A DNA stretch of 64,000 nucleotides. Origin: Schmidtea polychroa (lineage: Eukaryota). Shown here piece by piece: positions 2,399-46,930 of this stretch; the stretch's first letter is position 1, and each line of letters starts with the position of its first letter. The stretch covers positions 81,840,001 through 81,904,000 of the forward strand of contig CM097885.1 of NCBI GenBank assembly GCA_044892525.1, written 5' to 3'. The notes under the pieces were generated by a model, which saw nothing but the letters and a program-made list of their open reading frames with translations, was not told the origin of the DNA and did not search any database. Made by a program: the position numbers and the translations under genes.

Positions 2399-3813
2399 CT
2401 TCCATTTAATTTATTTTACCTAAATATTTAAACAATACCTCTGTAAAAAAATATTTAAAATATATAAAAATCGCTTACCATAAAACTATAAAATATTATT
2501 TACTAAAAAAATTATAACAAATTCAACTTGAATTCAAATTTTTAAAAATTTTAACTTCAATAATCTTTTTATTTTACATACAACAAATTTGAAAACCCAT
2601 TAGTAAAAACCGTCAGTAAAACAAAAACAAAGTACTACTATAAATAATATTAATGTATATTAACAGTATTATCTTGTTTAATTCTTATTTTCTATTAGAT
2701 AATTTAATTATAATTATCAATAAATATGTAAATATTTTGAAAAAAAATTACAAAAAAAGTTATATTGCAAGTGCCCTTTTTCGGTTGGTATTCTCAGTAT
2801 TCTCATTAATAATCGAAATATGTGCATATCATTTGGATCATTAATGTTATAAAAAATATTCTAATGACACAAATTTTAAAATAAGTGTATTCATCGATTA
2901 AATCCAATATATCAAATTCGTCTTCAGCCTTTAATATCCATGGTAGGTCACTACAAGAGGTCCGGAGATCGACCTCTGGTGGACAGATGTAAGTAGCCGA
3001 GAAAGCGGCTTCGGTGGCCTGTTTGGCACGCCTGCGTTTGGTCCGTTCAACACTCGAAATTTACTTGAAATTCGAACGTTGAGGAGCCAATGGGACTAGA
3101 GGCTGCTCAAGTCGTGGTTCAATGACGATCGAAATTCAGCTTGTCCTGGCGAACGGGGCTATTCGTGGCGTCGAGCTGGGAGTCGATATAGTGCATCCTG
3201 CACAAGCCAAGCTGGTCGAGATAGCTATGCAATCCGCCAGAGGTTGCATTTTTCGGCTGAAGTTAGCCCCTTGATTCGGTACTAACGTTCCTTAAATGCC
3301 CTCTGATATTTAAATATTAAATGCTAGCAATGCAGTTTCCCTAGAAAACTGTTGCTGTGTGTCGAATACTAATTAAACCTTGCTTAAACTGTTACAACTG
3401 ATTTAATCGATTAACTCGATGACCAATTTCTGTTTAGCAGAATTACCTTATCTGGTAAAGTAACGATGAAAACGCTAATTACATTTTTGTAAAATTATCA
3501 CTTTCGCTAATCATTTGTCGTAGTACAGATTCGACTTCTTTTCGCTGTTTCTCGAAACTAATGATTGACTGTTTAATTCTGTTTCAGTTTTTAAATTAGT
3601 TATGTGCGTTGGTCTGTGATCTACCAATCAATTTTATTGATACAAAATACTGGGTCCTGGTCAGCTAAGATTCTGACCTTATATATGAAATTTTTGCAAA
3701 AATTATTTATGAAAATTACTATTTATATTTTTTAAAATATTTATTTACTACTAATTATATTTTCTATCTATTTATAGCACTTATTTTTATTCCTATTATT
3801 TATATTTATATTA

Positions 3814-4369: not shown

Positions 4370-5203
4370 CTGGTTGTAACTAACTACTAGGTTCTTCCTA
4401 GTGTTAATTTCACGATATATAATCGTGGAAACCATGTAGGTTCCCTCATCGATTTTTACCACATCCGTAGTTGGGTATTGCGAAACAGCCATTTCCTGAA
4501 TAGGCTTGACATCAAATTCTGTGACTCGGTGCTTACAACGCGTTGCCAGTCTTTGCCAATATCTTGGGTCTTCGTTATCCAGTTCCCTCAGTTGGCTTTT
4601 AGCTCTGCCTCGAAACTGGAGTTCTCCTTTTGTTAGAGGTTCTGATTTGATTTGTAAGGCGGCCGTAAGTTCCTCTTGTGGTGGCTGGTTTTCTGGACCG
4701 ATACTTTTGGCATCTATTTCCTGTGACTGTGCTTCATTGGGGCTAGTTCGCCCAGGACATCTGTGACTTCCTCTATCACCTTTGCAGTTGGCTGTTGTTC
4801 TTCTGTCAGAATATGTATTTTAAGGGTGAACTCTTCGTCTTCGTCACTTTCCCACGTAGCGTAATCTTCCTCATCAGCCAATGATACTGATGAAAGTTAG
4901 AATGTCTTCCTCGGTGATTCGTTGTAATTTTGTCGGTGTATGGTTATTCAAGCTTAAGCTCTCCATAGTTCTTTTCTTGCTTCCTCCTGTGACAAAGGGT
5001 TGCTTGGGTGTTGTCTGAATCTGTGATGAAATCACATTTTGTCGATTTCCTTGTATAATGTTGTCTACCCATTGATGCTTAATTTTCAAATAAATCGGCC
5101 TTATGGTCGTAACGTCATCTTCCGTCTTTAGATCTATTTTCTGACCTATTTTCGTTATAGTATTACCTTTTTGAGGTATTCTAGCCGATAATGCTCGTTG
5201 CAT
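4370..5203 (-). pseudogene. Degenerate ORF of unknown function, about 270 codons with frameshifts
   Basis: ORF 4874-5203 continues after frameshifts as ADEEDYATWESDEDEEFTLKIHILTEEQQ...QFRGRAKSQLRELDNEDPRYWQRLATRCKHRVTEFDVKPIQ...VSYNQDVN*; GC-richer than its flanks; no recognisable domain. Confidence 0.45.
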
Positions 5204-5385
5204 TTTTTCAAGTCTTGGTTATCGAGGCACTTTGCTGCCCCTAGATCTCTGATTCCTAAAGCTCGTTGGATTGTGAACTGAATGGTACTTAGCAAATACT
5301 TAAAATGCTAGACCGACAATAATGTGTTTTTGTCGCATAATTTTCGGATCCTATCTGCGCAGTCATATCCATCTTATTAAAGGAA

Positions 5386-5775
5386 TTGGTTGCTTACAAA
5401 GCATTTATGATTGAAAATTTGCAATCCTTAGATAATGAAACTTTTTCAGATCGGATTCATTCTGAAGTGCTAGATGATATCGTTCTACGATTGGAAGTTC
5501 TTGGACTTGTATTTACAGAAATTAATGATGACAGAAAATCCAGTGATAAATCAACAGATGTTGTAAATTTTATCAGCAACGATGAAGATGATCTAAATGA
5601 CATGGCCGATATTATCTGGCAAGCTCTCATCATCGATTTTCCAGGTTTCATTACTGATATAACTTTCAGTTGGTGGCTAAGGTTGTTTAGGAAAAGTATC
5701 AACATTTTTAGCTCCGAGAATATTACACACATAATCGAAGACCTATTTCCAACAATCTTTTCAAAACTATTTTAA
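5386..5775 (+). CDS. Unknown helical protein, possibly death-fold (CARD-like)
   Basis: 129-codon intronless ORF; the segment LDDIVLRLEVLGLVFTE...SSDKSTDVVNFI...IIWQAL loosely resembles CARD helix spacing (by eye only). Confidence 0.35.
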   Translation: MVAYKAFMIENLQSLDNETFSDRIHSEVLDDIVLRLEVLGLVFTEINDDRKSSDKSTDVVNFISNDEDDLNDMADIIWQALIIDFPGFITDITFSWWLRLFRKSINIFSSENITHIIEDLFPTIFSKLF

Positions 5776-5795
5776 AATATTTAAAAAAATTGGAT

Positions 5796-6612
5796 ATGAA
5801 TAGACATCAGCTCACACGAGATGGTAGCGCCGCGCCGGGGCCTAATAATTTCCAGATATTTGTACAAAATTCCGTAATAAATAGAACCCAATCCTTTTTC
5901 GTAAACACAGACATAAAAATTAATTGTCTCTCTCAGTCATACTGTATGTTGACTAATTACAAATGCCATTTTCTTTTTTCGTATAACGGCACCATGCTCT
6001 CAGATAGTCGTACACTAGGTGACTACGGAGTGACACCATACCGCGTCATTCATTGTTTTTTTGCCACTTTATGGCGGTTCCCCAGATTCGGAGAATGACA
6101 TTGGCAGCAACCACAACTCAACAAGGACTAATCGCAAGTCCAATAATCAGCGTTTGACTTATTTATGTCAATATTTTTTGGATGAGAATAACTCTCCCCT
6201 TATTTGGCTGATTGCTACTGAACTAGCACTTGAGGGAATTGAGGTCACCAGTTCGCGAGACAAATACTGTCGCATTTTACCGTTTATTCCTCCAACGATA
6301 CAGTGGCGGAACTTCAAAATTTGGGCCCCCGCGCAATGTAGAATATTTCCACTTAAATTTTTCGGTTAAAGTTTAATACATAGTTATTCACAGCAGCCGC
6401 TATTCAATGAGAGTTTTATGTTTGTAGGCAAATATAACTGCGGGAAAAGTTTCAGAAAATGATTGTAAATATTTTTTTGGTAATAATTTTGGGCCCCCTA
6501 TAGCTGGTGGGCCCCCGCAACGCAGGGTCCTGTCCACTAGTTACGCCACTGCAACGATATTAATTAATGTTGGGCTAGAACGCGTCTCTTTCATTCTAAA
6601 ATTTTCTTAGAA
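5796..6612 (+). pseudogene. Ubiquitin-like domain fused to an unknown C-terminal extension; frameshifted and MITE-interrupted
   Basis: FQIFVQNSVINRTQSF...FSYNGTMLSDSRTLGDYGVTPYRVIHCF aligns with ubiquitin (MQIFVK...[25 protein letters not shown]). Removing one T from the T7 run near 6056-6062 gives HCFLPLYGG and joins ORF 6061-6369. Removing MITE 6301-6551 extends the frame to ...PPTILINVGLERVSFILKFS*. Confidence 0.65.
6301..6551. mobile_element. hAT-type MITE
   Basis: TIRs CAGTGGCGGAAC / GTTACGCCACTG; perfect 8-bp TSD CAACGATA at 6293-6300 and 6552-6559. Confidence 0.9.
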
Positions 6613-7360: not shown

Positions 7361-7807
7361 TTGTTTAAATTATCTGTTTGTATATATAACTTTTGTATAA
7401 AATTAGATATATTTCTTTAGATATTTATCTCACTGTAAGTGTTATTTTTTCTTAGCATAATTTTGAAATTATAGCTCATATAGTCCTAGCACATTTCTCA
7501 TATTATCACTGGTGAACAAAATCTTCTGCTGTCTTTTTCAAACTTTGAAGCTTCTTAGCATTTAAAATGTAACACAAAAAAACTCATCTAACTAATAGTT
7601 GATAAAATATAGCAAGTCTTAGCTTTCCTGTTAAAGTGAAATTTATTCATTGATGTTAATTTCTTTTAGTCTTAGTTATGTCGAAAGGGCTTTTTGTTTT
7701 TGTCAGCGTTGAAAACTAAAAATAGTTAATCAATATCAAAATAATATCAACTAAATAAACAAACTAAAAATTAAAACTACAACTTTTATTTATAAAAAGT
7801 AAAAACC

Positions 7808-8368
7808 TTGTATGGGATGAGATGTCAAAACGATACAATATGTTTTGAGGATATAGAATTAGAAGATTGTGTGAAATTTATTATATGCGGTCATTCAATC
7901 TGTCGCGAATCTAATTCACAATTGATAATTAATTATAATGAGGACATTATCCTATGCCCATTGGACAGACGGGAAGTCAACCAATTATCCATTCACAATT
8001 GTGATGGCGTCCTTACGACGGTGTCAGTTAATGAGTTAAGGGACGAATTAGAGGAAACTCGTCAACATTTCATGAAATATATATTTGAAAGTCTTCCAAT
8101 TACGAAGAAAACGATCTCCAGTTACAATCGCAACCTAGTATTGCTCTAAACTCATTATAATAATTTGAACCAAATTATCCATAATTCAGTCGGAAATAAT
8201 GAAAAAACCCAGCCAGTTTCCACAAAGATAAAAGAAGAAAATAAAAGATTTGTCGATGAAATCAAATCATTAACAACAGAGGTTATTCCTGAATATAAGA
8301 ATGCTATTAAAATTTATTCGTATGTCGACTACCATTTTGAGAACCTCCGTAGTGAAGTTTTAATATAA
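7808..8368 (+). pseudogene. Degenerate RING-finger (C3HC4) protein with coiled-coil tail
   Basis: DTICFED...IICGHSICRES...ILCPLDRRE is a RING pattern with two Cys ligands lost; followed by helical segments (ORFs 7808-8149 and 8165-8368); no introns needed. Confidence 0.6.
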
Positions 8369-8999: not shown

Positions 9000-11900
9000 T
9001 TTCGAAATTATAAAATTTAAATTTACATTTGCTACTTATAAAATTCTAATAATAGAGGTGGCCTTATGTCAGAGATAGAAATCATTCTTTCGTCTATGTG
9101 GTTCCAAACGAACTAATACTTCCACTCCCACCATGAATACTCGAGTACCTCGCTTGTCTATATCTCTACTTTTCATTGTTGTCACTGCTTTCTCTATATA
9201 TTTTTTTGTTTTATTTACGATTTCTACTCTGCTTTTTTATATATGTCCTAATCCAGAATATAAATTAATCTTCCGGTCATATACAATTTCAAAAGGTAAA
9301 ATATTTGTCGAGTTTTGTACTGTAGCATTCAAACTAAATTCAATCTTTGGTAACAATTTGCACCAATTATTTTCTGTTCTAATATCTGTCAATGATGTTG
9401 CCAGCATGGCCCGAACTGTTCTTATTATTCGTTCAGCTAAACCATTTGATTGATGTTGGTATGGTGAACTAAATTCTTGTTTTATGCCAAATCTTTTCAT
9501 CTAATCATGAAACATTGATCCTTCAAAATTTCTTCCTCTAGCTGTAAGAATGCTTTCTGGACTACCAAACCGATATATCCAATTATTCAGAATGACATTC
9601 AAAATCGTTGATTGATCCTGTGTACTTGTTGTTGATAAACTGACCAATTTACTAAAACGATCTATTATCATTATCCTATATTTCTTACTTGCTTTTGTTT
9701 CCATATATGCAATATCCACTACTATCTAAACCGTTCTTCTTTTCTTGGCAATAGGATTTCCTCTGTTCTTCTTTGATCAATCTTTCTACTAGCACAGATC
9801 TTGAATTTATTAATACATTTCGTAATACTCTAATTCATGAATGGCCAAAAGAAAAAATCTTTTATATAACATAAAGTCTTCATAATGCCCGGATGGCATA
9901 ATTCAATATGAAAATAATTTACCAATGTTTTTAGGTACGTGTCAGGTACTACAACTGCAACTTTTCCATCTGTATTAATCATCAATACGTCGTCTTGTAT
10001 CTGTAATATTTTTAAATTCTTGAAAATATTACTACTGATTGTTTCATAAGATATATGAGCCTCATTTCCATTAAGATGTGATATGATTTCTGAAATAATT
10101 CTGTCTTCGTTTTGCTTCTGTTTAATAATTTCCATAATGTTTGAACTTCCTTGTATACTATTTATATACCGAGTTCTACACTTTGTTTCTTTGGCGTCCT
10201 TGTGTTTCATCTGACAATGAGCGCATATCGTATTATTTAAACGAGACATACCATCTACATTTCCATGTTCTTCTTCTGGTATTTTGTTAAATCGGAGGAC
10301 CTCAAGTCGTTATTTCATGTGTTATTACTTTTTTATGACCTAAGTCAAACTGGATGCCATGAAAATGTTGCTAAACTTATATATTGAAGTACCCAACTTC
10401 GAATTCCTATCCAACTTAAGTGTCGATAACGCCAACTCTAGTCGATCAGAATTTGTAAATCTCTTAGTAACCAATGTGGCATCAATATTACTGACTTCTT
10501 TAAGCTCCATGCTAAATATTCTCATGGTGTCTACCCCTCCTATAAAATCTGGCTGAATTTTTCTGATAATAATAACATTCAATTCTGGACATTTGTTGTT
10601 CCATTTTGCAACGATATTTACGCTTCCGAGAGGTTTCTCATCTTCTTTTGAAAATACTCCACTCAACCGTACTCTGCGTTCCATCAATGCTGGACTGCCA
10701 ATCAATCTTCAACATTTTTCACTCATCACACTGATTGAAGCTCCTGAATCCCATAGCATTTCAATATAAAATTCATTTATTTCCATTGCACTCTACTTCC
10801 TATCGTCAATCTTCTTAAACATCACATCCTTCGCTACAACATTTAGTTTTTTATATTCATCTACTGTCTCGATCCTACTTACGAAATGTAAATAACATGG
10901 TCTTCTTGGTTCTTTTCTCTCAACATTATGCATGACTGGTTCTATCAATTCTTCTGATCTATCGTCGTCTTCTTCGAGTATACAATACATTCTTCGTTCC
11001 GGTCTTTGAGTATTACTTCTTTGACCTTCAACGGACACTCAAATCGCATATGATCACTTTGCCCACAACAAAAGCATTCACCATGTCTTAACCTTTCTTC
11101 TGCTGGCTCAGGTAAACCATAACATCTATTATAAACCTTTCTCGCGATATGTTTCATTGAAACTAACGGTGATGGTCCGTAGTTGTCCTTTCATTATATT
11201 GTTCTGCCACAGGTTTCACTTTATCAATTCGTCTTTCATTTCTTTCATTTCTATATTGATAACTTTTTTCTGGTTGACGACTTGAATATATTCTATTATC
11301 AAAAAATGATTTTTGAGTCCACTGCTTCTGGTTATCTTGAGCAACGTTTGCATATGTTGATTTAGCTACTGGCTGAACTTCTTCCAATCGTTCTTTTGCA
11401 TCATAACCTTCTCGTGTCTCATATACCTTTGCTAAATTTCTGATTTCTTCTCTCGTGAGGTTGGCCTTCGTTGATATATTTTCTTTCAAACGTTCGTTCC
11501 GAACTCTGTTGCACAAAACCATTTTAACAATATTCTCTTTTGAAATTATGCAGTCGAAAACCTCGTCAACGAGTTTCTTCACTCGTATCTTGAATGTAAC
11601 GAATCTTTCATCATGATTTTGTTTCACTGATGATAAGTCACAAATTTTATTTTACACATTTATTTCTTTTTTGTAAATGTGTCATTAAACCATTCACGAG
11701 CTTTTTCATTTGTTGTGGAGATGTCTTTAAATTCTTTCCAGAGAATAGATACCTCTTCAGACAATAACAAATCAAAAATACTTACTAAATTTAGATCATT
11801 AAGGATCATCCAATCTTCAATATCCTTGAGACATTTCTCTGCTTCTATCGTGCTTCGGCCCTCGAATCTTCTGATATTAAAATTTAAAACATCTTTTGCC

Positions 11901-15190: not shown

Positions 15191-15755
15191 AGTAATTATT
15201 AGCCACAGAGCTACGGGTATTAATAGAATCCATAACTAAAACACGTTTATTATAAAAACACCAAAATTATTAAAACAATTTATATCGTTAATTTGTTTGA
15301 GGAGTTTCTAAAAAATAATAATTAATGTACAACTTATACAGTATAAGTAAGGATTTCAGCATACATTCAAACATGCACAACATCATACCATTATTTAAAT
15401 ACAAATTACAAAACGCCTCACATCCCCCGCTTTTTGAAAACCTTTAACCACTCAATATTTCTCGTGACGGAACTTCCTTTTTCCAATTTTATTTCATAAC
15501 TTCATCATGAATCTTTTTAGTAATCACACCTGGACCCATGTATCTGTTATCACCTTTATTCCGAACATTTACTTTGATCAATACGCAACCTCCAATTTGA
15601 AATTCGCGATTTGTCGCCTGATTGATTTTTTCTTCTTCTACAATCTCTGAGAACCATTCACTATAAATCTTTTTCCCAAACACCATTTCAGCTGGAGTCT
15701 TCCTAATAGTTTTTTGAAAAGTTGAATCTTGAAATCCAAATTTTGTTATTATTTG

Positions 15756-17114
15756 TCAATAATCTGGCATCAAACTAATATTTTCTTTTATATTTTCAAT
15801 TTCTTTCGAGTTCTTTTGCCATATATTTTCAATATTATCAGTCATCAGTGTCAACAATCTTGTTTTTAATTTACCCATTTTAGGATTTTCATGAATCATT
15901 TGACATTGAACACAAGTTTCACATTCTTTTCTAGATAAAGCGAAGGCATTATTGTGGTTATCACCTTTTCTGTATTGAATCTCCGTGTCCAGACCACTAA
16001 GATGGTTAATCCAAGTTTGAAATTGTGGGGTAATAGCTTTCTTTGTCTTCATCATAAATGTAAAGGCTTTGTGATCCGTTCTCAAAATAAACTTTTTACC
16101 ATATAGATAATACTTAAAATGACCAGTAAAATAAAATATAGATAGTAATTCCTTTCTTGTTATACAATAACCCAACTCGTGTTTATTCATAGCTCGGGAT
16201 CCATATGCGATTACTCTTTCTTTACTTCCATCTTTTTGAGACAGAACAGCACCAATGCGGTCAAAACTTGCATCTGTATCCAAAATGAATGGCTTAGAAA
16301 AATCTGGGAACTTCAATACAGGTGTAGACGTCAATTTCAGTTTTAAATTTTTAAATGAAGTTTCACACTCATCAGTCCACATAAGCTTCTTTTGTTTACT
16401 TCCACATAACGCTTCTAATACTTTGGAATCTTTGGTGTAATTTTCTATAAATCTGCGATAGTAATTTGCCAAGCCTAAAAATCCTCTCAAACTTTTTACG
16501 CATTTAGGTCTTTCAAAATTTTTAATAGTTTCAATCTTGCTTTCATCCGTACGTATTCCATCTTCACCAATGATATGACCCAAAAATTTTACTTCTTTCC
16601 TTTTGAATTGACATTTTGCTGGACTTATTTTAAGATTTGCTAATTTAATCTTTTGAAAAACCTTTTCAATGGTACTATAATGTTCATTCAATGTCTTTGA
16701 AAATATAAGGATATCATCCAGATATACAATTGTTCCATTCCAATATAATTCTCCAAGAACCAAATTCATAAGTCTTTGAAATGTTGCTGGTGCGGCTGCT
16801 ATTCCAAATGGCATTCTGTTAAAGTAATATTGCTTACTTTTTGTCGAAAATGCTGTTTTCAATTTTGATGCATCATCGAGTTCTACTTGATAATAAGCAT
16901 TGCCTAAATCAATTGTCGAGAAAAACTTTGCTCCGTCAAGAATATCTAATAATTCATCAGTATTTGGAATGGGAAAAATCGGTCTTTCGGCTATATTATT
17001 TAAAGCACGGTAGTCCAAGCATATTCTTAAATCACTACTGTTTTTATTTTTAACACATACTAATGGAGAATTCCAAGGAGATGTACATTCTGATTTAATG
17101 CCATATTTCAACAT
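15756..17114 (-). pseudogene. pol: Gypsy reverse transcriptase and RNaseH, N-terminally broken
   Basis: SPWNSPL, RICLDYRALN, FSTIDLGNAYYQ, RMPFG, VYLDDILIFS, LDTDAS, KELL, TDHK motifs; last RNaseH Asp replaced (NAFALSR). Confidence 0.92.
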
Positions 17115-17142
17115 TTCTTGAATATTTCTTCAATTTTTTCTA

Positions 17143-17658
17143 TTAAATGTATAGGTTGTCGTCTTGACTACCTTTAGTAAGTATTTCATGCTTTAATAGT
17201 TCGGTTTTTCCAACATCCCATTTATGTTTCATAAAAATACCGTCAAACGTGGAAATTAAATTATTTATAATCTTATCTTCACTTATGTGGTTATTAAATG
17301 AATTTTCCATAATTGTATTTATTTCGTCTGTACGGTTTTCTATTTGCAATTGCATTCCAAATCTTTCGAGAAAATCTATACCTCCTATTAACTTTGGGTT
17401 TATATCTTTGGCTACAACGAATTCTACTTTTTTAATATCAGAAATTTTATCAACTTTTACATTTAATAAAGTTTTACCGCAAATTTCAATCGGGCTATCA
17501 TTCGCACATCTTAATTTTAAATTACTTGTAGTCATATTCAAATTTCCAAGTTTTTTAAAAATATTATAATCAATCACACTTATTTTAGCTCCAGTATCTA
17601 ATATGCATACTAATTTTACATTATTAATCATTACGGTAACACTGGGCCTTCCCTGCAT
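17143..17658 (-). pseudogene. Gypsy aspartic protease
   Basis: ILDTGAKISVI and LIGGIDFL motifs. Confidence 0.88.
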
Positions 17659-17866
17659 ACTATTATATCATTCCGTTTATCACGATTAAGAACATTTAGT
17701 TCATTAGAAGTTAGGGGTGGATCTTTAAAAACTTCATCCATACAAAATTTATTAATGTATATATTAATATAATTTCTATAATCAAAAACACCATCACAAC
17801 AGTTATCATTCAAACTATCACAATCATTCAAAATCATACAACCCTTACTCATATCATTAATTACCT

Positions 17867-18891
17867 TTAATTTATTGCTCCGATCGCCTCCTCGTGTGGT
17901 GGAGCATTCCCATTTGGGTACTCAAAATCAGCCTCTGGATCCTCGTCACCGAATGCAGCCACTGATTTATGGAATTTTCGACGTCTGCCTGGAAATAACT
18001 CATGGCACTGATGTTTGAAATGTCCAGATCTTTTACAATGGGCACATTGAATATTGGGGCATTCAGATCTTCTATGACCTTCTTCGTGGCACGCCCAACA
18101 TCGCAAAATTTGATTTGTTCGGACATGATCTCGCGAATGAAATTCCCTGGTATTATAAGGCTTACTTCTATTCATAGGTTTCCATCCATTTGAAATAGCA
18201 TATCGATGTTCTCTGGTAAGATCGCATTTGAATCTTGGATTATGTTGAGGTTCTCTTGTATATTCATCTTTGAATCTGGGATTAGCTTCTCATTCTCGAA
18301 TTGATCTGTTATCATAACTATATCTTGGTAAGCTCTTCTTAACACCATCAGCATAGCGTTGTGTTTTATTCATTGAAGCTACATCAGCATGAAATACATT
18401 AATTTCTTTTGAAACTTGATCGTGTCTCTTTAATCTTTCTTTCATTTCATCAAATGATTTTAAATCTTGCATTTTGAGATCTTTTTTAACTTCTTTATCT
18501 TCAAGCGAATTGAATAGCAAAAATTTCTTTAGTTCTTCATCAAGTTTATGCTTCAAAATATTTTTTGCAAGTTTCTCAATTTTTGAGCAGAATTCTTCGG
18601 CAGCCTCATTTCCTTGACGATGATTTAGCGCTTCGTTGAGATCATCGATAAGACTTCTGTTCTTAGAAAAAGCGTTTTTAATCTTTCTGTATAACGCAGA
18701 GTTTCATTAGTCAACTCATATTTCTTCGTTGAATTGATTGATAGAAAAGCTTTGACGAATTTGCTTCTGTATTCATCGACAATATTTGTCATCTCGAAGA
18801 ATCGTTCCGTTTCTAAGATAAAATCTTCCACGTCTGAATCCATGTCATATGTTTCTGGTGGCTTGATAAAATTTGCAATCGTGGTCGCCAT
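17867..18891 (-). pseudogene. gag: Gypsy gag, frameshifted, with two CCHC knuckles
   Basis: MATTIANFIKPPETY...; CWACHEEGHRRSEC and CAHCKRSGHFKHQC; the ATG is formed by the last base of the LTR plus the TG of the PBS. Confidence 0.85.
18878..18890 (-). other. Primer-binding site, tRNA-Arg-like
   Basis: Plus strand CGTGGTCGCCA abuts the LTR and matches the 3' end (...CGUGGUCGCCA) of metazoan tRNA-Arg(UCG) as I recall it. Confidence 0.7.
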
Positions 18892-19453
18892 ATTAGCCAC
18901 AGAGCTACGGGTATTAATAGAATCCATAACTAAAACACGTTTATTATAAAAACACCAATATTATTAAAACAAATTATATCGTTAATTTGTTTGAGGAGTT
19001 TCTAAAAAATAATAATTAATGTATAAGTAAGGATTTCAACATACAATCAAACATGCACAACATCATACCATTATTTAAATACAAATTACAAAACGCCTCA
19101 CAGTAATCTTGACAAACTAAACTGAATGACTTTCGAAGCCATGAAAAGAAATAATAACAAGGTTGTTTAATTAGTAAATTTTACATTTAATAAAAGTTAT
19201 AATAATTAATTGTATCGTTATACTATATCATTTTTAATTATTCCCTTTTTTCTGGTTGTATAAAGCAATACATACACGCACCCGATTGTCCCGCTACAAT
19301 ATTTTTTTAAACGGTGACTCTTTCGGGCTCTTCAAGTTTCTGATAACATAACATCACTCATTATACGATTATACTAATACTTAAATAATAAGCACATAAT
19401 CACAGGAACCTTCCGAACAATTACCATCATTTATTGACTCAATTTAATGTTTT

Positions 19454-19750
19454 TTAATCTAACTGGATGAGCTTACCTTCATCCTTCGATTCTTCCGACA
19501 CTTCTACCTTCATTCGAAACATCACAAAGTCTGCTTTGTGTTGTAATAATAGGACATCTAGGCGATTCAACCGCTTTCTCAGATAGAATTTTTCTTCCTC
19601 CAAGTCCGTTATCCTACCGTTCATACTTCGGAACTTCCGCTTCAATTCTTGCGTGTTACTTTTGCATTCTTTGCATGATAACTTCGATGCTTCTTGAATT
19701 CTCTGAAATTAAATGGAATTATCCGTTTTGTCTTACTTTCTAATCACAAA
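19454..19750 (-). pseudogene. Small coiled-coil ORF remnant
   Basis: KRKFRSMNGRITDLEEEKFYLRKRLNRLDVLLLQ is heptad-like; lies downstream of the glycoprotein on the same strand. Confidence 0.35.
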
Positions 19751-19849
19751 GCATCAACACCTTGCCTTAAACTAGATCAAACAGAACGTATAACTCATAC
19801 TATGATACTCATAAAATCATGCAATTTGTCGATATAACGTAAATAAATA

Positions 19850-19853
<4 letters not shown>

Positions 19854-19908
<55 letters not shown>
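19854..19908. repeat. (TA)n microsatellite
   Basis: Perfect TA run following AATCGA. Confidence 0.95.
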
Positions 19909-19914
<6 letters not shown>

Positions 19915-20114
19915 TTATTTATAGCATGCAGATCACAAATCTATAGTCTTGCTTCATGATAGGAATATCGTGGTAGTGATAGTGATAGTTATGAAAGAGA
20001 AAAAAAAGGACGAGGAAACCTGTTACCAAAATGTAAATGAGGTATTCACATATTTTCGATTTCGATTAAGTCGCGTATCTCTTTTATTTGTCCTTCTATA
20101 GGAATTTGATTTTA

Positions 20115-21990
20115 CTATTTTGACATGTTTTGTCTCAACAACCATTGGTATTTAAAAGTTTGTTTTAACTTTCGTGCTGCAAACACATCTTTATCGTAAT
20201 TAAGTTCCACTAATGATGTAGTAGTGTCAAATAAATTGATGATTTCTATTTGGTCAGTAATCTGGCATCTACAACTCCATACAATATTTGTTAGGGTAGA
20301 ATATATATCGATTTTTTCCATCACCTGGATTTGGCTTACCGCGTATGGTAATTCAATCTTTTTCACGCCCGCATTTGTTAATAACATCAGCATTTTTGTC
20401 ACATATAATTTTTTGTTGATGTAGCTGACTGGTTTATTATTAATATCACTACTATAAATTTTTCCCAGATCTTTTTCAGTGTATTATGCGTCGCTTCCTT
20501 GTTATGATCTGGAGTTAACAGATACTGGTAATTTACCTTCCCACTTCCGCTTGGGAGGATTGTATCTACCATTTCCATTATTAGTCTTTCTTTTTTTGAC
20601 GGAAATAACAAATTTCTACGAGCTTCCTCAATGTCTTCACACGAGTAAATTCCACTTTGCGACAACTTTTCCAATGATGTAAAATTCACCAAATATTATA
20701 GTTCTGTCAATACAAAATTTTTCGGTGTCTATTTCTCGACGGTCCGGCAACGCAATCCATGATGCTGGTGTTAATCTGTATAGTGTTGCCAACAATCTAT
20801 TGCATTGTAGGACTTTCACAGGCTTCATAAATCGCAGCTTTCCATTTATATTGACGGGTAATTTGTTGGTGCATTGGTTGTCCTTTGTTAGTTTGACTGG
20901 TATAGCTTTACATTTGTAGCTATATAGTGCTTCACCGATGATTCTGCCAAACACCCCATTCTCTTTAATCAATATTGGTGCCACCAAATTGAGATTGGTT
21001 ATAGCCATTGTCACCCGATTTCTGAGTATTTCCTTATTGAGATTGCTATCGTTTGTAATAATTTCTCGGTATACATTTTCAACGGTATTTTGACCAAAAT
21101 GAAACAGATCATCTATCTTATTATTGAAGTAATTTGTCAATTTTAGATCTCGCGAATGTGTATTGAGCCTCTGTGATCAACTTCTGGGATACATATATCT
21201 CTTTACAGTTCGTCTCATAGACACTTTTTTCTAGTGTATTTTCTCAGAAATCGCATCCCATCTTCCACCTATGTTGACATTGACACTGTTGAAGTGTTCA
21301 TCCGTAAATGGGTGACTCTGGTCGCTGTACTCGTTGCTGGATCCATTCTTACCTTCTCAGACTTTTCCCGGATCTGCCCTCCCGTAATTTTTTTGAAACT
21401 CATTGACTTCAATTGCACTAAATTGCACCTTTTCGTATCGACTTCGTACACTAAGATTGATTCCACTGTCTGACAGCTATATTGTTTCATGTTGCAGAAC
21501 GGGTGTGTCCTTATCATCATCAAATGATCCATCGAATTCTCTTAGTTCCGACATGTACTTTTCCACCAGAACGGCTTAGTCAATTATCGCCTCGTGGTTC
21601 TCCTTGGCAATCGCCATTCTACTTTATAATCCCTCTCACAGTCGCCGACTCACGAATTTTGTGGTTTAATTTTGCTTGTAATTTGATATCTGCATTGATT
21701 TTTTCAACCCTAACCATTTGGAAAGGCCGCCATACAATTTTCTGGAATTATCTCTATCGATCTAGATATCGATTGCATTTTCATCATAGATGAGTGGCTC
21801 CATTTACCGCAATAAAATACAAAAGTGGTTCGTTTGACTGTACACTCCCTCACCTTTGATACAAACATAGATTCTTGATACACGTGATATTTTACTGGAT
21901 TTGTCACTTTGAACTTTACTGGGTATGCATCTGAACACTCTGCTACGTCCACTAACGAATATAATTAAATATTAATTTAAGTATTAATTT
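20115..21990 (-). pseudogene. Endogenous chuvirus-like envelope glycoprotein, decayed and near full length
   Basis: Collinear motifs typical of chuviral G: ECTVKRTTFVFYCGKWSHSS; NGDCQG; VENVYREIITNDSNLNKEILRN...GVFGRIIGEALYSYKCKAIPVKL...QCTNKLPV; QCNRLLATLYRL; SGIYSCEDIEEARRNLLFPSKK; IWEKF followed by a hydrophobic stretch. Several frameshifts and stops; no introns evident. Confidence 0.75.
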
Positions 21991-22384: not shown

Positions 22385-25248
22385 TATCTTCTTCGACAAT
22401 TATTTCACAATTTTCCTCTTCAAGTAGTGTATTCGCACGTTTAGCAAATGAATTTGACTTTTTTTTACATTACTAAAATCACGTGAAAATTTTTTTAAAG
22501 AATTTAATGTGGAAGTTACCATGTTATAAGCTGTTTAATAATTTAAATTGCTGGTTTGTAAATATTTAGATAACGGTCCAATATATTGAAAAATTTTTAA
22601 ATAAATATGCGCTGTAAGTATAACTTTAAATTTCAATAAAGACTCCATTAGTGTTGATGCAGTGTGTCTAATTTGAGCATTGAAAGATACATTAGACACA
22701 AAATAATTCAAAGTTATCAATAAGTCTACATATAATGAGGTTTCTTTGTTATCATAATGCCCAAAATTTTTTTAAGTGCTGTTTCTTTTGCTGATCATCT
22801 TGTTTCACCTATAACGTTAAGTCTCTGATACCTTATTTTTACACTGGTGTTTGATAAGATTCTCTTAGAAATACGGCACACGAGTTGAGTAATTGAAAGA
22901 GAGAAGTACCTTCAATTACCGAACTAGTAGCATCTGTGACAACTAAATTCAATACGTGGGCATAACACCAAACGTGAATTTGACCAGGCGATTCTTTACT
23001 TAACCAACTGGTGAAGCCATTATACTGTCCACGCATGTTTGCTGCTCCGTCTGTCGAATTACCGATACAATTTTTAATATTTAATCCACTGTTTTTAATA
23101 AAAGTACTAATTAAATTGCACATGTCTTTCCCTGTATACGATTTGCAATTTAAAACAGCTACTACACGTTCATAAATATTTCCCTTTACATATCGGACAA
23201 CAATTGAGCACTGATCCTTTTGTGTTATGTCCTGTGTGGTGTCGATTTGCAAAGGAAAAATACCTGCTTCCTGTATATCTAACAAAATGCTATCTTGAAT
23301 TAATTTTCCACTGGCCAAAATTACCTGGTTAATAGTAGATTTTGAAATTAATGAAATAAAACTGCCTCTACCTTTAGTTCCCGCAGATGTTTCATTATTT
23401 TTCTTCTTTTCTTTGATGACTCTTGATAAATGTAATTTTAACACAGCGTCATATTTAGAGAGTAGCAATATTATTTCTAAAAAATTACCATGGTCTTCTT
23501 GATTATTTTCAAGTGAAAGTGAAGAAACAGATTCAGATCGGTGAGCGCGAAAAGCTAATCCTCTTTTTCCAATTAATTTTACAACATCTATAATTCTTTC
23601 CAATACTTGTTTTCGTTCAATAATATTTTTCTGACGTATGCTTCCTTCATTTGTGAACATTAAATTATAAATATCTTTGCCTTTAGATTTGAGCATATGA
23701 CAATTTACACAATTTTCATGAGCCAAACACATGTTACAAAATTGAGCATTTTTTTCCAAACTATATGATAGCCAACGCCTATTTACTTTATCTTCTCTAT
23801 AAAATATTAAATTTGGTTTAAAAGGTAAATTAGTAATGTCATCAATGGTTGGTTGGCATGGATATTTTTTAAAAAACTCTTCATAATTTTGATTTCCTGG
23901 CCTTATGAAATAATTATCTGATAAGAAATTAAACATTTTGTTTGTTGGTGTTATCATTTCATTATTGGCCTGGGTGGAAGTTGAAACTGAAGTTATTTCT
24001 TCGAGAATTGATGTTTCAACTTTATCTGCGCCAATGGGACACATAATAGTATCATCATTCCTCGAAACTGATGAACTTAAATCCAAATCCTTATTCAAAT
24101 TTTCAATATCAAATGCATTGATCTTAGAAGTTAAAGCAAACATATCACTTAATTTAAGAGTATTTTTAGCAGCTTCTTGCATGATTTTTGTCGCTTTTCT
24201 CTCTCTTTTTGAGCGCCTCCTTTAAATTTTCTTTTTTCCATTTTTTCTAAATAATAAACGTAAATAATTTAACAATATAATACAATAAGTATTTATTTAA
24301 CCCATTAACGCCTAAACAAAAATTAATCGATAATTTATTCTTAAAGTTTGCATTGATAGTATACGCTTTAAGAAAATAAGATTTATAAAAAATGTATGAA
24401 AAGAACAATAAATCATCTTACATATATATAGTTTATAAAATAATAATAATAATATTATATAATTAAAAAAAAAGAACACTTCCAGTTGGATGCAGTATAA
24501 GTTAACAATTTTGTTTAATAATAATAACACCGGTGGTCCTAAAGACATAAACAAGCAGCGCGATAGTAACTCCGTATTTAATTTCAAAACATTAAATCTT
24601 ATCTAACAAACAGACCGTCAAATAAGGAACTAAATTTAAAACAAATTTGGACCATTGATTCATTACTGTGTTTATATTAACAAGATAAAACGTGATAAAT
24701 ATTATAGTCTTCCAATATTGTTGAATTTTTTTTTCTTATCGTCCTCAAATGAATATGGCCGGCGTTAATGGGTTAATAACAGACATAAGACTTAGCCATC
24801 GTTCAGTGGATATTTTATGTTTTTTAAAATCCTATTTTATATTTTATGTAACATGAAGTTGTTTCATCTTTGTTTATAGATTATTGTTGGTTTTTGGAGT
24901 CTGTTATTATTTTATGTACAAATGTATGTACTTGTTATGTATGTATTTTTGATTTAAATGAAATAAAAAGATAAAATGCATTTTGAATGATAAACCAAGT
25001 TACATATTTAACAAATTTGGAACCGATCTCATTGAATTTGTATGAATTTGTATTAGAATAATTGATTCGTTATACGGCTTTTAGCTTTGCGGCCAAGTTT
25101 CGTAGAACGTATCTGGGCCGTAAAGCGAGGTATGGATGTATTGTATATTGTTTCATTTATTTATTTTTTTTAATAAGAAGAAATAATTTAATAGTTTACA
25201 TATCGCCGGCCTCGCGGCCTCTAATTCGACCGGCCCAGTCCGCCACTG
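22385..25248 (-). mobile_element. hAT transposon (ZMYM1/DUF4371-like transposase), 3'-truncated
   Basis: ORF 22839-24182 with GLAFRAH, HGNFLEIILLLSKYD, QIDTTQDITQKDQCSIVVRYV, STDGAANMRG, HVWCYAHVLNLVV; remnant 22535-22720; one TIR CAGTGGCGGACTGGGCC ending at 25248; other end lost. Confidence 0.88.
24301..24772. mobile_element. piggyBac-type MITE nested in the hAT 5' region
   Basis: Perfect 12-bp TIRs CCCATTAACGCC / GGCGTTAATGGG flanked by TTAA on both sides. Confidence 0.88.
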
Positions 25249-25410: not shown

Positions 25411-26482
25411 AAAGATATTATTATTAAAATTATTATTATTATTTTCAATGTAATATTATTACTATTATTATTATTGTGAGGTGTTTTCAGCTGAGAATTA
25501 AATATTTCGATGATTTATTAAAATAATTTTAAATGATAAATAATTGACTGTTTAAAATAACTTTGATTTTTTACGTTTAACAGTATCGTGTGGACATATC
25601 ATTGTGAAATATCAGTGCAAATAGAAGTTAGCAATCTAATGAATCCCTTCAAACCATTTGTCGCAGTTGAATTGCGAGCAAAAGTATATGTAGCTTGACA
25701 ATTAACAACAAATTATAAATATCCTTGGACCATTAAACAAAATACGTATCAAACGAATGCTACTCAAAACATTTATAACATTATACAAATTAACATTTGG
25801 ACAAAAGAGTAGAGAAATTTTGTTGAAATTGAACCGATGATAAATGGAATTTATGTGTATTGGAGAGCAGAAGAACAACAAAAAGTCAGAATTGTCTTCC
25901 AAACCATACTGTTGAGACAATAAATAAAAGAAAATCTTTTGTTAATTACAAATATTTACTAGTAAATCTCACTTACGGTCTTTCAATACATTATTACGAG
26001 AAACTTATTTATGATAATGGGACGTATATGAATAATCAATTGTCTGAAGTTCAAAGTCATTACGAAACAGTACACTTGACAAATGAAACTAACCGAGTTC
26101 AAATAAAATAATTGTGTCACGCCGACCAGGCGCCAGACACAGGGTAAATGTTTTTGTAAATAATAAAATTCAGGTGTAGTAGACGAATACCAACAAAGAG
26201 CAAAGTTTAGTACTCCGAACTTAGAAACTAAACCAAAACCAAGCAAGTTTGTAATAAAATTTCAATATTGCAAATGAAAAACCAATCCGGATTGATGGCA
26301 AATCACATTCATTTAAAATACACATATTCATTTTCCTTATACTCAACTCTTTGGAGAAATAACAATTGATCATAATCTAACATTTCCCGTAAAACTCTTA
26401 TGGAAAAAAAACGAACGCCCTTCATTAAACTGTAAATAAAATTCATCTAGTAACAATTATGTTGAATAACTCTTCATATGCG

Positions 26483-26900
26483 TCATTGTGGCAATACCAA
26501 GCAGTATACTACCTCTTTGGCTATCCCTGCTAAGGTTTTCATTTGAACCTTTCGAAGCATTTCGGGATTTAGCTGTTCCTTTGATGGGGGTTTCACTTGA
26601 TCTTTTCTAGGACGACCTCGTCCATCTTTCTTTGATTTCACCGAAGGTTTTAATGGCTCCGGATTTTTTATTGCTTGTGACGTGGTTGCTCCCACGTTTG
26701 TTTCCTCTGGATTCAGTTTGACTTATTCCGAGAAGTAATCCTCATCCACCTATCTTATTTCCTCGATTTCCTCGACTATTGCGTCTACTGTGTCTGGTAA
26801 ATGTAGTAATAACCATTGGGACTCTGGTGGTGCAACTGGTATAATCATTAGCGTCGTTGTTTCGATCGGTAGACAACCCACATTTACCAGGTATTAATCA
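26483..26900 (-). pseudogene. Degenerate ORF with AT-hook
   Basis: KKDGRGRPRKDQ AT-hook core in ORF 26483-26695; the upstream frame continues with stops. Confidence 0.5.
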
Positions 26901-27727: not shown

Positions 27728-28112
27728 ATGATCGGGAGTGTCTCTAGAAATGTACTCTTCTGGATAGGTATAATATGGTGTAGAGATATGAAATCAGACA
27801 GTAGAACATATAAGTTATAAGTTTCTAGAAATGGATGTTAAATATTGTACAATGCTACTCAAAATGAAAAATAGTGCAAAGCAAATCGGCCGATAAGCTG
27901 CGTTTAAAATTTCTTTTCTTTTGATGCAATTTTTTCCATTGATGCAATTTAAAACTCTGCCAAAAAAGATGTCTTTACTTTAATAATACAATTGTATGCC
28001 ATTGGTAATAGTACTTTTCCGAGCATTCGAATATCAGTTATATTTTGCCTTGTCTCTCAGACTGACTTCGAATATCTTTCCCATTTTTCCTCATCAGCGC
28101 CTCAATATGCGT

Positions 28113-28760
28113 CTAATATAGGCTTGTTTCCTTTACAAAAGGCATGATGAGTGGAATTATCACTTCCAACATTTCCACCGGTATTCTTAATACTATAATC
28201 CAGTCTAATATTTCCTTTATTGTTTCTCCATCTCGTGGAGACGTTTGTAATTCTAACCCTAGTCGCTGGGTTAGTTGTTGGGATTCCTCCAACTGCTCAA
28301 TTTCTATTTGTGTGATCAACAATACACTGTCTTGACCTACTACTGCTACGGGTGTCTGTGCCCGCTTGGCAATGAGTTTTGTTACCCTGCCATTTTGCAT
28401 AGGCGTTTTGCTTGCTACCAGTTTTACTCCATAAAAGTATAAATCATATCTTTGATGTTTTATACCTTTCAATGTTTCTACTAGTTTATCAACCCGACAC
28501 CTCACATTTATGTCAAGGTTGTACTCCTTTTCCTGCGGGAGTTTGATAATGAGTTGGGCATCTTGTAGATCCCATTCATGTTTCAAAGCTTGTCCAAATT
28601 TCTTTAGGATTATCTGCGTATCTTTGTAATATTTTGAATCATCTTCGTCTTGTGATATCAGTTTTACTACTGTATCAATGTCACTATTTTTGATTTCTGG
28701 TTTTGCCATTTTCTCTAATTGTCGAACCAGCTTCTCATATTTAGAATCAACCAGTTTCAT
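28113..28760 (-). CDS. 215-aa intronless ORF of unknown function
   Basis: Uninterrupted ATG-to-stop ORF within retroelement-like DNA; no recognised motif. Confidence 0.55.
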   Translation of the reverse strand: MKLVDSKYEKLVRQLEKMAKPEIKNSDIDTVVKLISQDEDDSKYYKDTQIILKKFGQALKHEWDLQDAQLIIKLPQEKEYNLDINVRCRVDKLVETLKGIKHQRYDLYFYGVKLVASKTPMQNGRVTKLIAKRAQTPVAVVGQDSVLLITQIEIEQLEESQQLTQRLGLELQTSPRDGETIKEILDWIIVLRIPVEMLEVIIPLIMPFVKETSLY

Positions 28761-28859
28761 ACATTTGATTCGGGTATCTGACCCTTCTTCGACCTTTGTC
28801 TTGTTTGACGAACTTACTTCGGACTTGCTCAGTTAAGGTGTGCGAAGTCCGATAGTAAA

Positions 28860-31465: not shown

Positions 31466-31739
31466 CTAATGGAATTTATTTCATTAATTTAAAATAACAG
31501 GAATAATTTTTTAAAAATTTTTAACCTCACATATTTGTTTAAATGAAACAATAAAAAATCAAAAAACGAATTTCTATCAATGAATTATATCAGAAAAATC
31601 AATAAAATTCTAAAAAATATTTCACACACAGACAAGTGTCACTAAAGCACAATTGAAAGATGATAGCAACAGAGCACTTCATATGTCATTTCTATTTTTT
31701 TATTTGAAATTTTAACTTTTATTAAATTGTTTTATCGCA

Positions 31740-32907
31740 ATGGAAACTTACGAGAAAATTTGGGATCTTCTAGACAAATATTCATTTAAAATAGATCCGC
31801 AAATAGCGATATTTGTCACTTGTTGCATCTGTGAAAACTTACTCCTGGGTGCCTCACAGGGGCCCTGTGGCTGTATGTATTGTATAGATTGCATTGAGAA
31901 ATGCCTCGAAGACGGACCGAAAAGTTGTCCCGGAGACACTAAAGAATGTGGACAAAAGTCCTTAACGATGGAGAGTATTATTAAAATAGATAACAGTGCA
32001 AACCGGCGCATATCAAAATTGCAAGTGAAATGTCCAATTGGATTCTGTAATTTCCAAGGGGAAATGAATGAAATGGTAGAGCATGTGCCGAATTGTGAAA
32101 AAAAACAGGTTATTGTAATAACGATTAAAACAATAAATGTTTTTGTTGATTTAGTCACAAATGATGGAATTAAACAAAGAAATCGGGGATATGAAAATTA
32201 AATATAATGAACTTTTGATGATGATAAAATCAACAGAAGAACAAACCGAGAGGCAGCATTCCCAATTGAAACAATACATGGAAGATAATATGAAAAAGTT
32301 AAGACAAGAAATCAACAAGTATAAAGACTATGATGAAAGAAGAGATGTAATAATGTTTTGTTGAGGAATTGAAAATATATAAAAATAAATGTTCTAGAGA
32401 AAAATTATGGAGCTCGAACGACAAATCCGAGAATTACAAGATCGGCCAGTAATTGAGAGACTAATAGCTCCACCAGTAAAAGAAATTTCTATTAAACATG
32501 TTTGGGATATTGAAAAGATTTCTCGGATTAAGAAAAAAGGTGCTGTCGTTTGGAGTGAATTATTTTATTCGATTAATCAAGAATATCTCATGAGGCTTTG
32601 GCTCCATCCGAATGGATCTGCGGTTGGCACCGCACATCACATAAGCATTGAGTTTTGTATATGTGACGATGCGGATAATCCCCTTTTGAAATGGCCCATC
32701 AAATGCAATATCAGCGTTGTCTTGAAAAGCAAAGATTTTCCAGATAAAACCGAAAAATCTCTGTCAAGAAATTGTTTAATCTCGAAAGCATTATTTCCTC
32801 AGTTCAGCTCGGAATATTTTCATTTCATATATTCTGACCCCGATGTCGCTGCTCTTTTACAAACGAAAACTCTTACAGTAGAATGTGAAGCTGAAATCGG
32901 TCATTGA
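31740..32907 (+). CDS. traf: TRAF-family protein (RING-like, TRAF zinc finger, coiled coil, MATH); 3 exons, 356 aa
   Basis: Exons 31740-32108, 32155-32346 and 32398-32907 join in frame through GT-AG introns of 46 and 51 bp. Motifs CCIC...PCGCMYCIDC...CP; LQVKCP..C...HVPNC; MATH HVWDIE...SELFY...YLMRLWLHPNG...HISI...LKWP. Confidence 0.9.
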
Positions 32908-46827: not shown

Positions 46828-46930
46828 TTAATAATACTAAATCTTTCTATATATTTCCTAATGATTTAAAAATCTATATTATAGATTTTTAAATCACTAG
46901 GAAATATATAGAAAGATCTAGTATTATTAA
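46828..46930. repeat. 103-bp near-perfect foldback palindrome
   Basis: Arms of about 51 bp with only two mismatches. Confidence 0.9.

Follow-up and report, generated by a model that had tools for sequence, protein, structure and literature searches.

The window analysed here (the whole stretch of 64,000 nucleotides of Schmidtea polychroa, contig CM097885.1, positions 81,840,001 to 81,904,000) very probably contains a dead, internally deleted fragment of a Ty3/gypsy element close to Smed_errantivirus_2. In unbroken copies of this element, a class III fusogen is encoded between gag and pol and is accompanied, behind the integrase, by a predicted membrane protein with three FN3 domains, which is likely to act in attachment or membrane targeting. 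The env and its element family are already published, and the main claim of the first-pass annotation, i.e., a chuvirus-like glycoprotein serving as env of a flatworm LTR element, was right in kind. The new part is the second membrane protein, which is apparently undescribed and which, from its modelled structure, is a candidate attachment partner of the gB-type fusogen. If this is true, a conserved surface protein made in the same frame would be a direct candidate for the entry partner of gB-type proteins, and a retroelement whose single polyprotein places a surface protein on either side of Pol would be building its particle in an unusual manner. With this second membrane protein, the question of how gB-type elements enter cells becomes testable, and planarians are amenable to RNAi.

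Transcripts of Burro, a giant planarian element, increase after knockdown of smedwi-2 (reported in the part of PMC8532177 used here). The env of Burro, in frame between gag and pol and with matches to mononegavirus fusion glycoproteins, has been described (PMC6431247), as have GAG-ENV-POL gB-type elements in Platyhelminthes, including Smed_errantivirus_1-6 listed for S. mediterranea (text and supplements of PMC13524379); thus, contrary to what the first-pass annotation was aware of, such an env has been described in planarians. The text and seven supplements of PMC13524379 make no mention of fibronectin or FN3, PDZ, Burro or Bcl (its figure labels and GitHub models may differ). In PMC6431247, the section on Burro is silent on any membrane protein behind the integrase, although Grohme et al. 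2018 or Repbase may do so, and a literature search returned, by title or abstract, no fibronectin domain in LTR elements.

The remnant in the window

Five open reading frames on the minus strand, 21710-21964, 21269-21541, 20637-21176, 20399-20695 and 20115-20483, lie exactly where they had been annotated, and all of the motifs quoted from them are present in the window; an in-frame stop at about 21610 stands before the NGDCQG motif. Three of the five fragments match the Pfam profile PF24664 (Monjiviricetes_fusion) in collinear order (E 2.4e-7, 3.3e-17 and 5.3e-11), which is far beyond chance and bears out the identification of a chuvirus-like G. The fifth fragment, 20115-20483, has no Pfam match; in the family polyprotein, it aligns with residues 2956-3082, which lie behind the integrase. 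The proposal of one collinear G of about 600 codons therefore holds for 21963-20454 (about 500 codons), whereas the fifth fragment is the start of a post-integrase protein. At 20434..20453 (minus strand), the alignment jumps from element nucleotide 6118 to nucleotide 10202: an internal deletion of about 4.1 kb, which took the env anchor, protease, RT, RNase H and integrase, has joined two different proteins, and the reading as a single G is rejected. Among the 39 other best genomic matches, none aligns as one piece past query base 1510, none crosses the deletion junction and none is closer than 83% to the window copy.

The decayed gB/chuvirus-type env ectodomain occupies 20454..21963 on the minus strand, corresponds to about residues 1067-1595 of the family polyprotein and is 81.4% identical to element nucleotides 4534-6118 of a natural copy. 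Its aligned codons contain 10 indels (7 of them frame-shifting) and 6 in-frame stops. It is followed, on the same strand, by a remnant of the post-integrase protein at 20055..20433 comprising the signal-like segment and the first FN3-like domain (residues 2956-3082; 80.7% nucleotide identity to element nucleotides 10202-10580, a profile match, 2 in-frame stops), which contains the fifth fragment. A second deletion, of about 0.6 kb, precedes a piece of the C-terminal transmembrane helix of that protein at 20012..20050 (89.7% over 39 nucleotides to element nucleotides 11199-11237). The decayed cytoplasmic tail and the end of the polyprotein frame lie at 19900..19991 (73.9% to element nucleotides 11296-11374) and the start of the element's 3′ non-coding region at 19441..19837 (73.8% to element nucleotides 11380-11775), after which no 3′ LTR was found. 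Gag and pol are thus entirely missing from the window copy, as are both LTRs, the signal segment and transmembrane anchor of env and the greater part of the tail protein; judging from its sequence, this copy is a dead, decayed, 81%-identical remnant that can make none of these proteins. Compared with the young family, the dN of its G is 0.075 against a dS of 0.56, so that the copy appears to derive from an older subfamily on which purifying selection acted before the copy decayed.

The nearest long upstream frame (22839-24221, minus strand, 460 codons) sits where the gag of the element would have been. It matches DUF4371 in Pfam, which we take to be a domain of hAT-type DNA transposases, and is probably such a transposase; the neighbours are thus not all LTR-element DNA, as had been supposed. 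The reported absence of nucleoprotein and L-polymerase remnants was upheld, there being no N or L domain among the 39 frames of the window. On the plus strand, a sister family has left an independent remnant of its gene for the post-integrase FN3-like protein at 25573..26512 (83-85% nucleotide identity to copies of that family; profile E 3e-64; 40% amino acid identity to the first, 3334-codon family).

The 3′ side of the env remnant abuts another, small gypsy element, about 3.9 kb long (15197-19102, minus strand), with terminal repeats of about 220 bp that are 92% alike; it has a gag knuckle, protease, RT (41% identical to that of the env family) and RNase H, and an integrase frame was not found in it. 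Fragments resembling ubiquitin, RING and MATH domains (5712-6098, 7796-8149, 31716-32907 and 27978-28814) probably also derive from elements that carried cargo: 31800-32724 is similar to the TRAF-like ORF of a Burro-type giant, and 27978-28814 is weakly like the ubiquitin-like region of the env family (E 0.002). A near-perfect hairpin with 51-bp arms and a 1-nucleotide loop lies at 46828-46930.

Unbroken relatives and their env

The genome searched comprises 781 Mb in four large chromosomes. A 127-residue fragment of the window, used as query, gave 1952 first-look candidates, of which 150 were scored; the 149 besides the window are 79-83% identical to the fragment, and 7 of the 150 sit in frames of exactly 3334 codons. 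Stretches of 40 kb were taken around five of these: the 3334-codon frame was present in all five, and the LTR pairs of four were 99.5-100% identical (two whole pairs, and two lying partly inside the 40-kb stretch). The family has spread recently. One copy measures 17,349 bp and has 1050-bp LTRs, a polypurine tract and a primer site. The LTRs of the relatives have TG...CA ends, the primer site is complementary to tRNA-Trp(CCA) genes in the same genome, and 4-bp target duplications flank four copies from three families, other copies having irregular ends; the window remnant has lost its LTRs, primer site, polypurine tract and target duplication. Four sequencing runs (of RNA by guess, one probably of DNA) gave contigs about 97% identical, three of which cover the 10-kb stretch in one piece, and no joints were listed; these contigs speak neither for transcription nor against splicing.

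No stop or frameshift separates gag, env, pol and the tail protein in the 3334-codon frame, in which gag is followed by a ubiquitin-like domain, a Bcl-2-like domain, env, protease, RT, RNase H and integrase. Pfam recognizes Retrotrans_gag, CCHC knuckles, PF24664 (E 5.9e-93 in a natural copy), aspartic protease, RT, RNase H, H2C2 and rve; the ubiquitin and Bcl-2 matches are weak (E 0.0014 and 0.025, respectively), and both recur in two other families. The gypsy-type families are PF03732, PF13975, PF00078, PF17917, PF17919, PF17921 and PF00665, and no BEL/Pao family was found in the polyprotein at E 0.1. Pao-type Pfam families include Peptidase_A17 and DUF1759. Judged by these families, the element is Ty3/gypsy, not BEL/Pao, and the parallel that had been drawn with captures of BEL/Pao type does not apply. 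Hydrophobic segments lie at residues 962-980 (within the Bcl-2-like domain), 1030-1048, 1593-1622, 2958-2976 and 3288-3317; signals and anchors were assigned among them from hydropathy and the structure model rather than by a dedicated predictor. The layout is that of an env-carrying Ty3/gypsy element: the order of pol is protease, RT, RNase H and integrase by Pfam, and a gB-type ectodomain lies between a signal segment and a transmembrane helix in a GAG-ENV-POL arrangement.

Intact copies between gag-pol and a 3′ LTR had been proposed as a check of the captured-env reading: intact copies do lie in LTR elements, but their env is in frame between gag and pol. The preference for a captured env over a plain insertion was sound, as all 28 loci around G (27 distinct places) continue into element sequence downstream and 27 of the 28 do so upstream; these were best-scoring copies only, a choice that favours young, complete elements.

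The structure model of G (pLDDT 64) has its best BFVD matches among the G proteins of chu-like viruses (E 6e-34, identity 17-21%) and, among solved structures compared by VIA, matches herpes gB with a Z of 8.8 (rmsd 7.8-8.9 over 363-371 residues); class III fusogens or parts of them make up nine of the ten top VIA rows. The comparison with viral glycoproteins called for in the first-pass annotation thus came out positive, and G is a chuvirus-like class III glycoprotein serving as the env of a flatworm LTR element. Recent capture from a chuvirus is not supported, because identity to chuviral G is only about 17-21% and the gB-type env is argued to be ancient in these elements in the part of PMC13524379 used here, which also states that gB-type env ectodomains may be flanked by two transmembrane domains; topologies other than the one proposed below thus exist. 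Homologue searches with G returned no named chuviral sequences, and a scan of viral contigs with the G alignment found no relative. Between families, G is 69-78% identical (pN 0.11-0.17), conserved about as strongly as gag, and the cysteines that it shares with distant relatives are kept.

Several observations on these families stand apart. A metagenomic G relative, P0004 (41%), opens with residues that can be aligned by eye with the last part of the Bcl-2-like domain; from this sequence, the in-frame order Bcl-2-env seems to exist outside this genome. In two sister families, the polyprotein is followed by a further ORF of about 500 codons (L060:5450-6967 and L070:5334-6821), with an RNase_T exonuclease domain in one (E 3e-5) and no clear family in the other; no such ORF is present in the 5-kb 3′ region of the 3334-codon family. 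A copy of the 3346-codon family with identical LTRs lies inside a 369-bp tandem array (L093-L095, G000 C4, about 5.50 Mb), the unit of which looks like a tRNA gene. The genes of tRNA-Trp(CCA), the primer tRNA of these elements, form a 284-bp tandem array on G000 C4 from about 55.02 Mb (L140-L142); their pattern has 821 matches in the genome, and nearly all of the 100 listed are in this array.

The membrane protein behind the integrase

Behind the integrase, and in frame with it, is a module of 385 residues. This tail module is present in each of the five families encountered (four with frames of 3334, 3329, 3346 and 3437 codons, respectively, and one seen only as broken copies), with 34-48% identity between families, and both of its hydrophobic segments are kept. 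In this protein, a signal-like segment is followed by three predicted FN3-like domains and a transmembrane helix, and the end is mostly E-T-x-V/L. AlphaFold, given 14 sequences, modelled three beta-sandwiches and a C-terminal helix with a pLDDT of 69 (range of five models, 49-69). The best Foldseek matches were FN3 arrays of CD45 and fibronectin (E about 2e-9, the global TM-score being low, 0.18-0.24), VIA gave a Z of 9.5, only slightly above the 7-8 common for beta-sandwiches, and the ESM Atlas gave fn3 at 0.93, with 169 of 256 features shared. Pfam fn3 matched 0 of 14 members at E 1, and a sequence search of the PDB gave no informative match. Thus, by modelling, the tail protein is predicted to carry three tandem beta-sandwiches of FN3 type.

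Full-length copies of four of the five families carry E-T-x-V/L directly before the stop: ETRL, ETTV (once ESTV), ETFV and ETWV. The one copy examined of the 3346-codon family ends without this motif, and several broken copies end before reaching it. We take E-T-x-V/L to be a class I PDZ-binding motif (C-terminal S/T-x-V/L/I), and the end of the tail protein is accordingly described here as a putative PDZ-type motif. The last 400 residues of the polyprotein contain 4-12 N-glycosylation sequons. An exhaustive protein search found one relative outside the genome, P0012 (E 4e-10, 21%), which has the same layout and ends in STLV; a word-indexed search of proteins returned no match to the tail protein, and two metagenome scans gave no confirmed relative.

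In three comparisons between families, the pN of the tail protein was 0.29-0.42, with pS saturated at about 0.8, whereas the pN of RT was 0.04-0.09. The sequences therefore indicate that the tail protein of these five families is under purifying selection, yet diverges fast.

A polyprotein of Burro type in the same genome ends in a signal-like segment, a possible single FN3, a helix and S-R-I (L115:5149-6195, G000 C1, about 270-271 kb), and this C-terminal stretch has at least 150 genomic matches. Against the profile of the tail protein it gave no alignment (probability 0.1) and no hmmsearch match, and its Atlas value was only 0.77; its likeness to the tail protein is therefore no more than a lead.

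Proposed mechanism, alternatives and known systems

The polyprotein would thread the membrane of the ER twice. The signal segment (about 1030-1048) would send env into the lumen, and the anchor (about 1593-1622) would return the chain to the cytosol, where protease, RT and integrase would form a loop; the second signal (about 2958-2976) would then send the FN3 ectodomain out, and the last helix (about 3288-3317) would leave a short cytosolic tail ending in the PDZ-type motif. Cleavage by signal peptidase and by the protease of the element would free equal amounts of the parts at a single membrane, from which enveloped particles would bud. Membrane fusion would fall to the gB-type protein, and the FN3 protein would either attach to the target cell or direct budding to sites of cell contact. 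Herpes gB requires gD, gH and gL, and the entry mechanism of gB-errantiviruses is named as unknown (PMC13524379, in the part used here). We put forward, tentatively, that these elements are endogenous viruses with a two-protein envelope, i.e., a gB-type fusogen and a separate attachment protein of FN3 repeats whose tail binds PDZ domains. Both would be processed from a single Gag-Env-Pol-Env2 polyprotein with four passages through the ER membrane; in the tail protein, the gB-type fusogen would have the entry partner that its herpesvirus counterpart needs, and the arrangement may be general to the Burro clade. A complex prediction for G and the FN3 region, run without alignments, scored 0.00, which counts neither for nor against their partnership.

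The main rival is that, in the same element, the tail protein manipulates the host from the cell surface (as a receptor decoy, or a modulator of adhesion or signalling) and has no part in entry. This is a real possibility, though one to which we would not give even chances: the polyprotein already has Bcl-2-like and ubiquitin-like cargo, a Burro-type giant carries a TRAF-like ORF and ankyrin repeats, the divergence of the FN3 region keeps pace with that of this cargo (pN 0.29-0.42, compared with 0.11-0.17 for G), and FN3 arrays are typical of receptor ectodomains. Chuviruses, moreover, use a single G as far as is known. However, the tail protein is encoded in frame with Gag, env and Pol, would be made in the same amount as these and would arrive at the same membrane; a receptor-binding protein may diverge fast too, and the two roles are compatible. 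It is rather unlikely that the element moves inside the cell only, with env and the tail protein serving mainly to anchor Gag and Pol on the ER for assembly. The proposed topology would indeed tether Pol at both ends, no evidence of particles was found here or in the parts of the cited papers that were used, and transmission is described as unproven outside Drosophila in the part of PMC13524379 used here; but the whole G ectodomain is conserved about like gag and its cysteines are kept, which a mere anchor would not need.

Very improbable, by comparison, is that the sequence in the window is simply a piece of an endogenous chuvirus, or that its G was acquired recently by a BEL/Pao element in the way known from mosquitoes. 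The best structural matches of G are indeed glycoproteins of chu-like viruses, and the window copy has no adjoining LTR, gag or pol. However, it has 81% DNA identity to the env of a gypsy element and runs on into the post-integrase and 3′ sequences of that same element, and identity to viral G is low. A plain chuvirus insertion was rejected, since each of the 28 loci runs into element DNA on at least one side and the frames of the window hold no N or L; a BEL/Pao host was rejected on the Pfam families of the polyprotein. The preferred reading of the window thus remains a deleted fragment of an env-carrying Ty3/gypsy element.

Among known elements, Smed_errantivirus_2 and its siblings 1-6 share with this family the Ty3/gypsy type, the HSV/gB-type env, the order GAG-ENV-POL and intact copies in the hundreds (215 for Smed_errantivirus_2; PMC13524379, in the part used here). 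The env stretch listed for Smed_errantivirus_2 in the supplement differs from P0001 of the young family at 5 of about 251 residues, by eye (about 98% identity), whereas the window copy is an older, 81%-identical relative; the table in that paper gives no LTR or tRNA for the Smed_errantivirus elements, whereas here the LTRs and the tRNA-Trp site are clear. Anakin, of mosquitoes, is likewise an LTR element with a Jingchuvirales-like G as env (PMC7642597, PMC10084718 and PMC12440569, in the parts used here), but it is BEL/Pao, another retrotransposon superfamily; in the planarian family, gag and pol flank an in-frame env, and behind the integrase comes a second membrane protein. Burro/GYPSM1 resembles this family in its huge single polyprotein, with gag, three CCHC knuckles, ubiquitin-like and Bcl-2-like domains and an env in frame between Bcl-2 and protease (PMC6431247), and a Burro-type copy in the same genome has homologous G (33-37%) and pol (44%). 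Burro exceeds 30 kb and has 4873 codons, whereas this family has 17 kb, 1-kb LTRs and 3334 codons (the comparison being with the description in PMC6431247). The ankyrin, BIR or MATH cargo of Burro has no Pfam match in the 3334-codon polyprotein, which thus differs from Burro in both length and cargo.

Paramyxovirus F with H or G is a two-component entry system. Herpesvirus gB with gD, gH and gL likewise pairs a fusogen with separate surface proteins (PMC13524379, in the part used here), and the planarian family would do the same if the tail protein is on particles. The parallel with both is drawn from design alone, not from homology between the tail protein and their attachment proteins.
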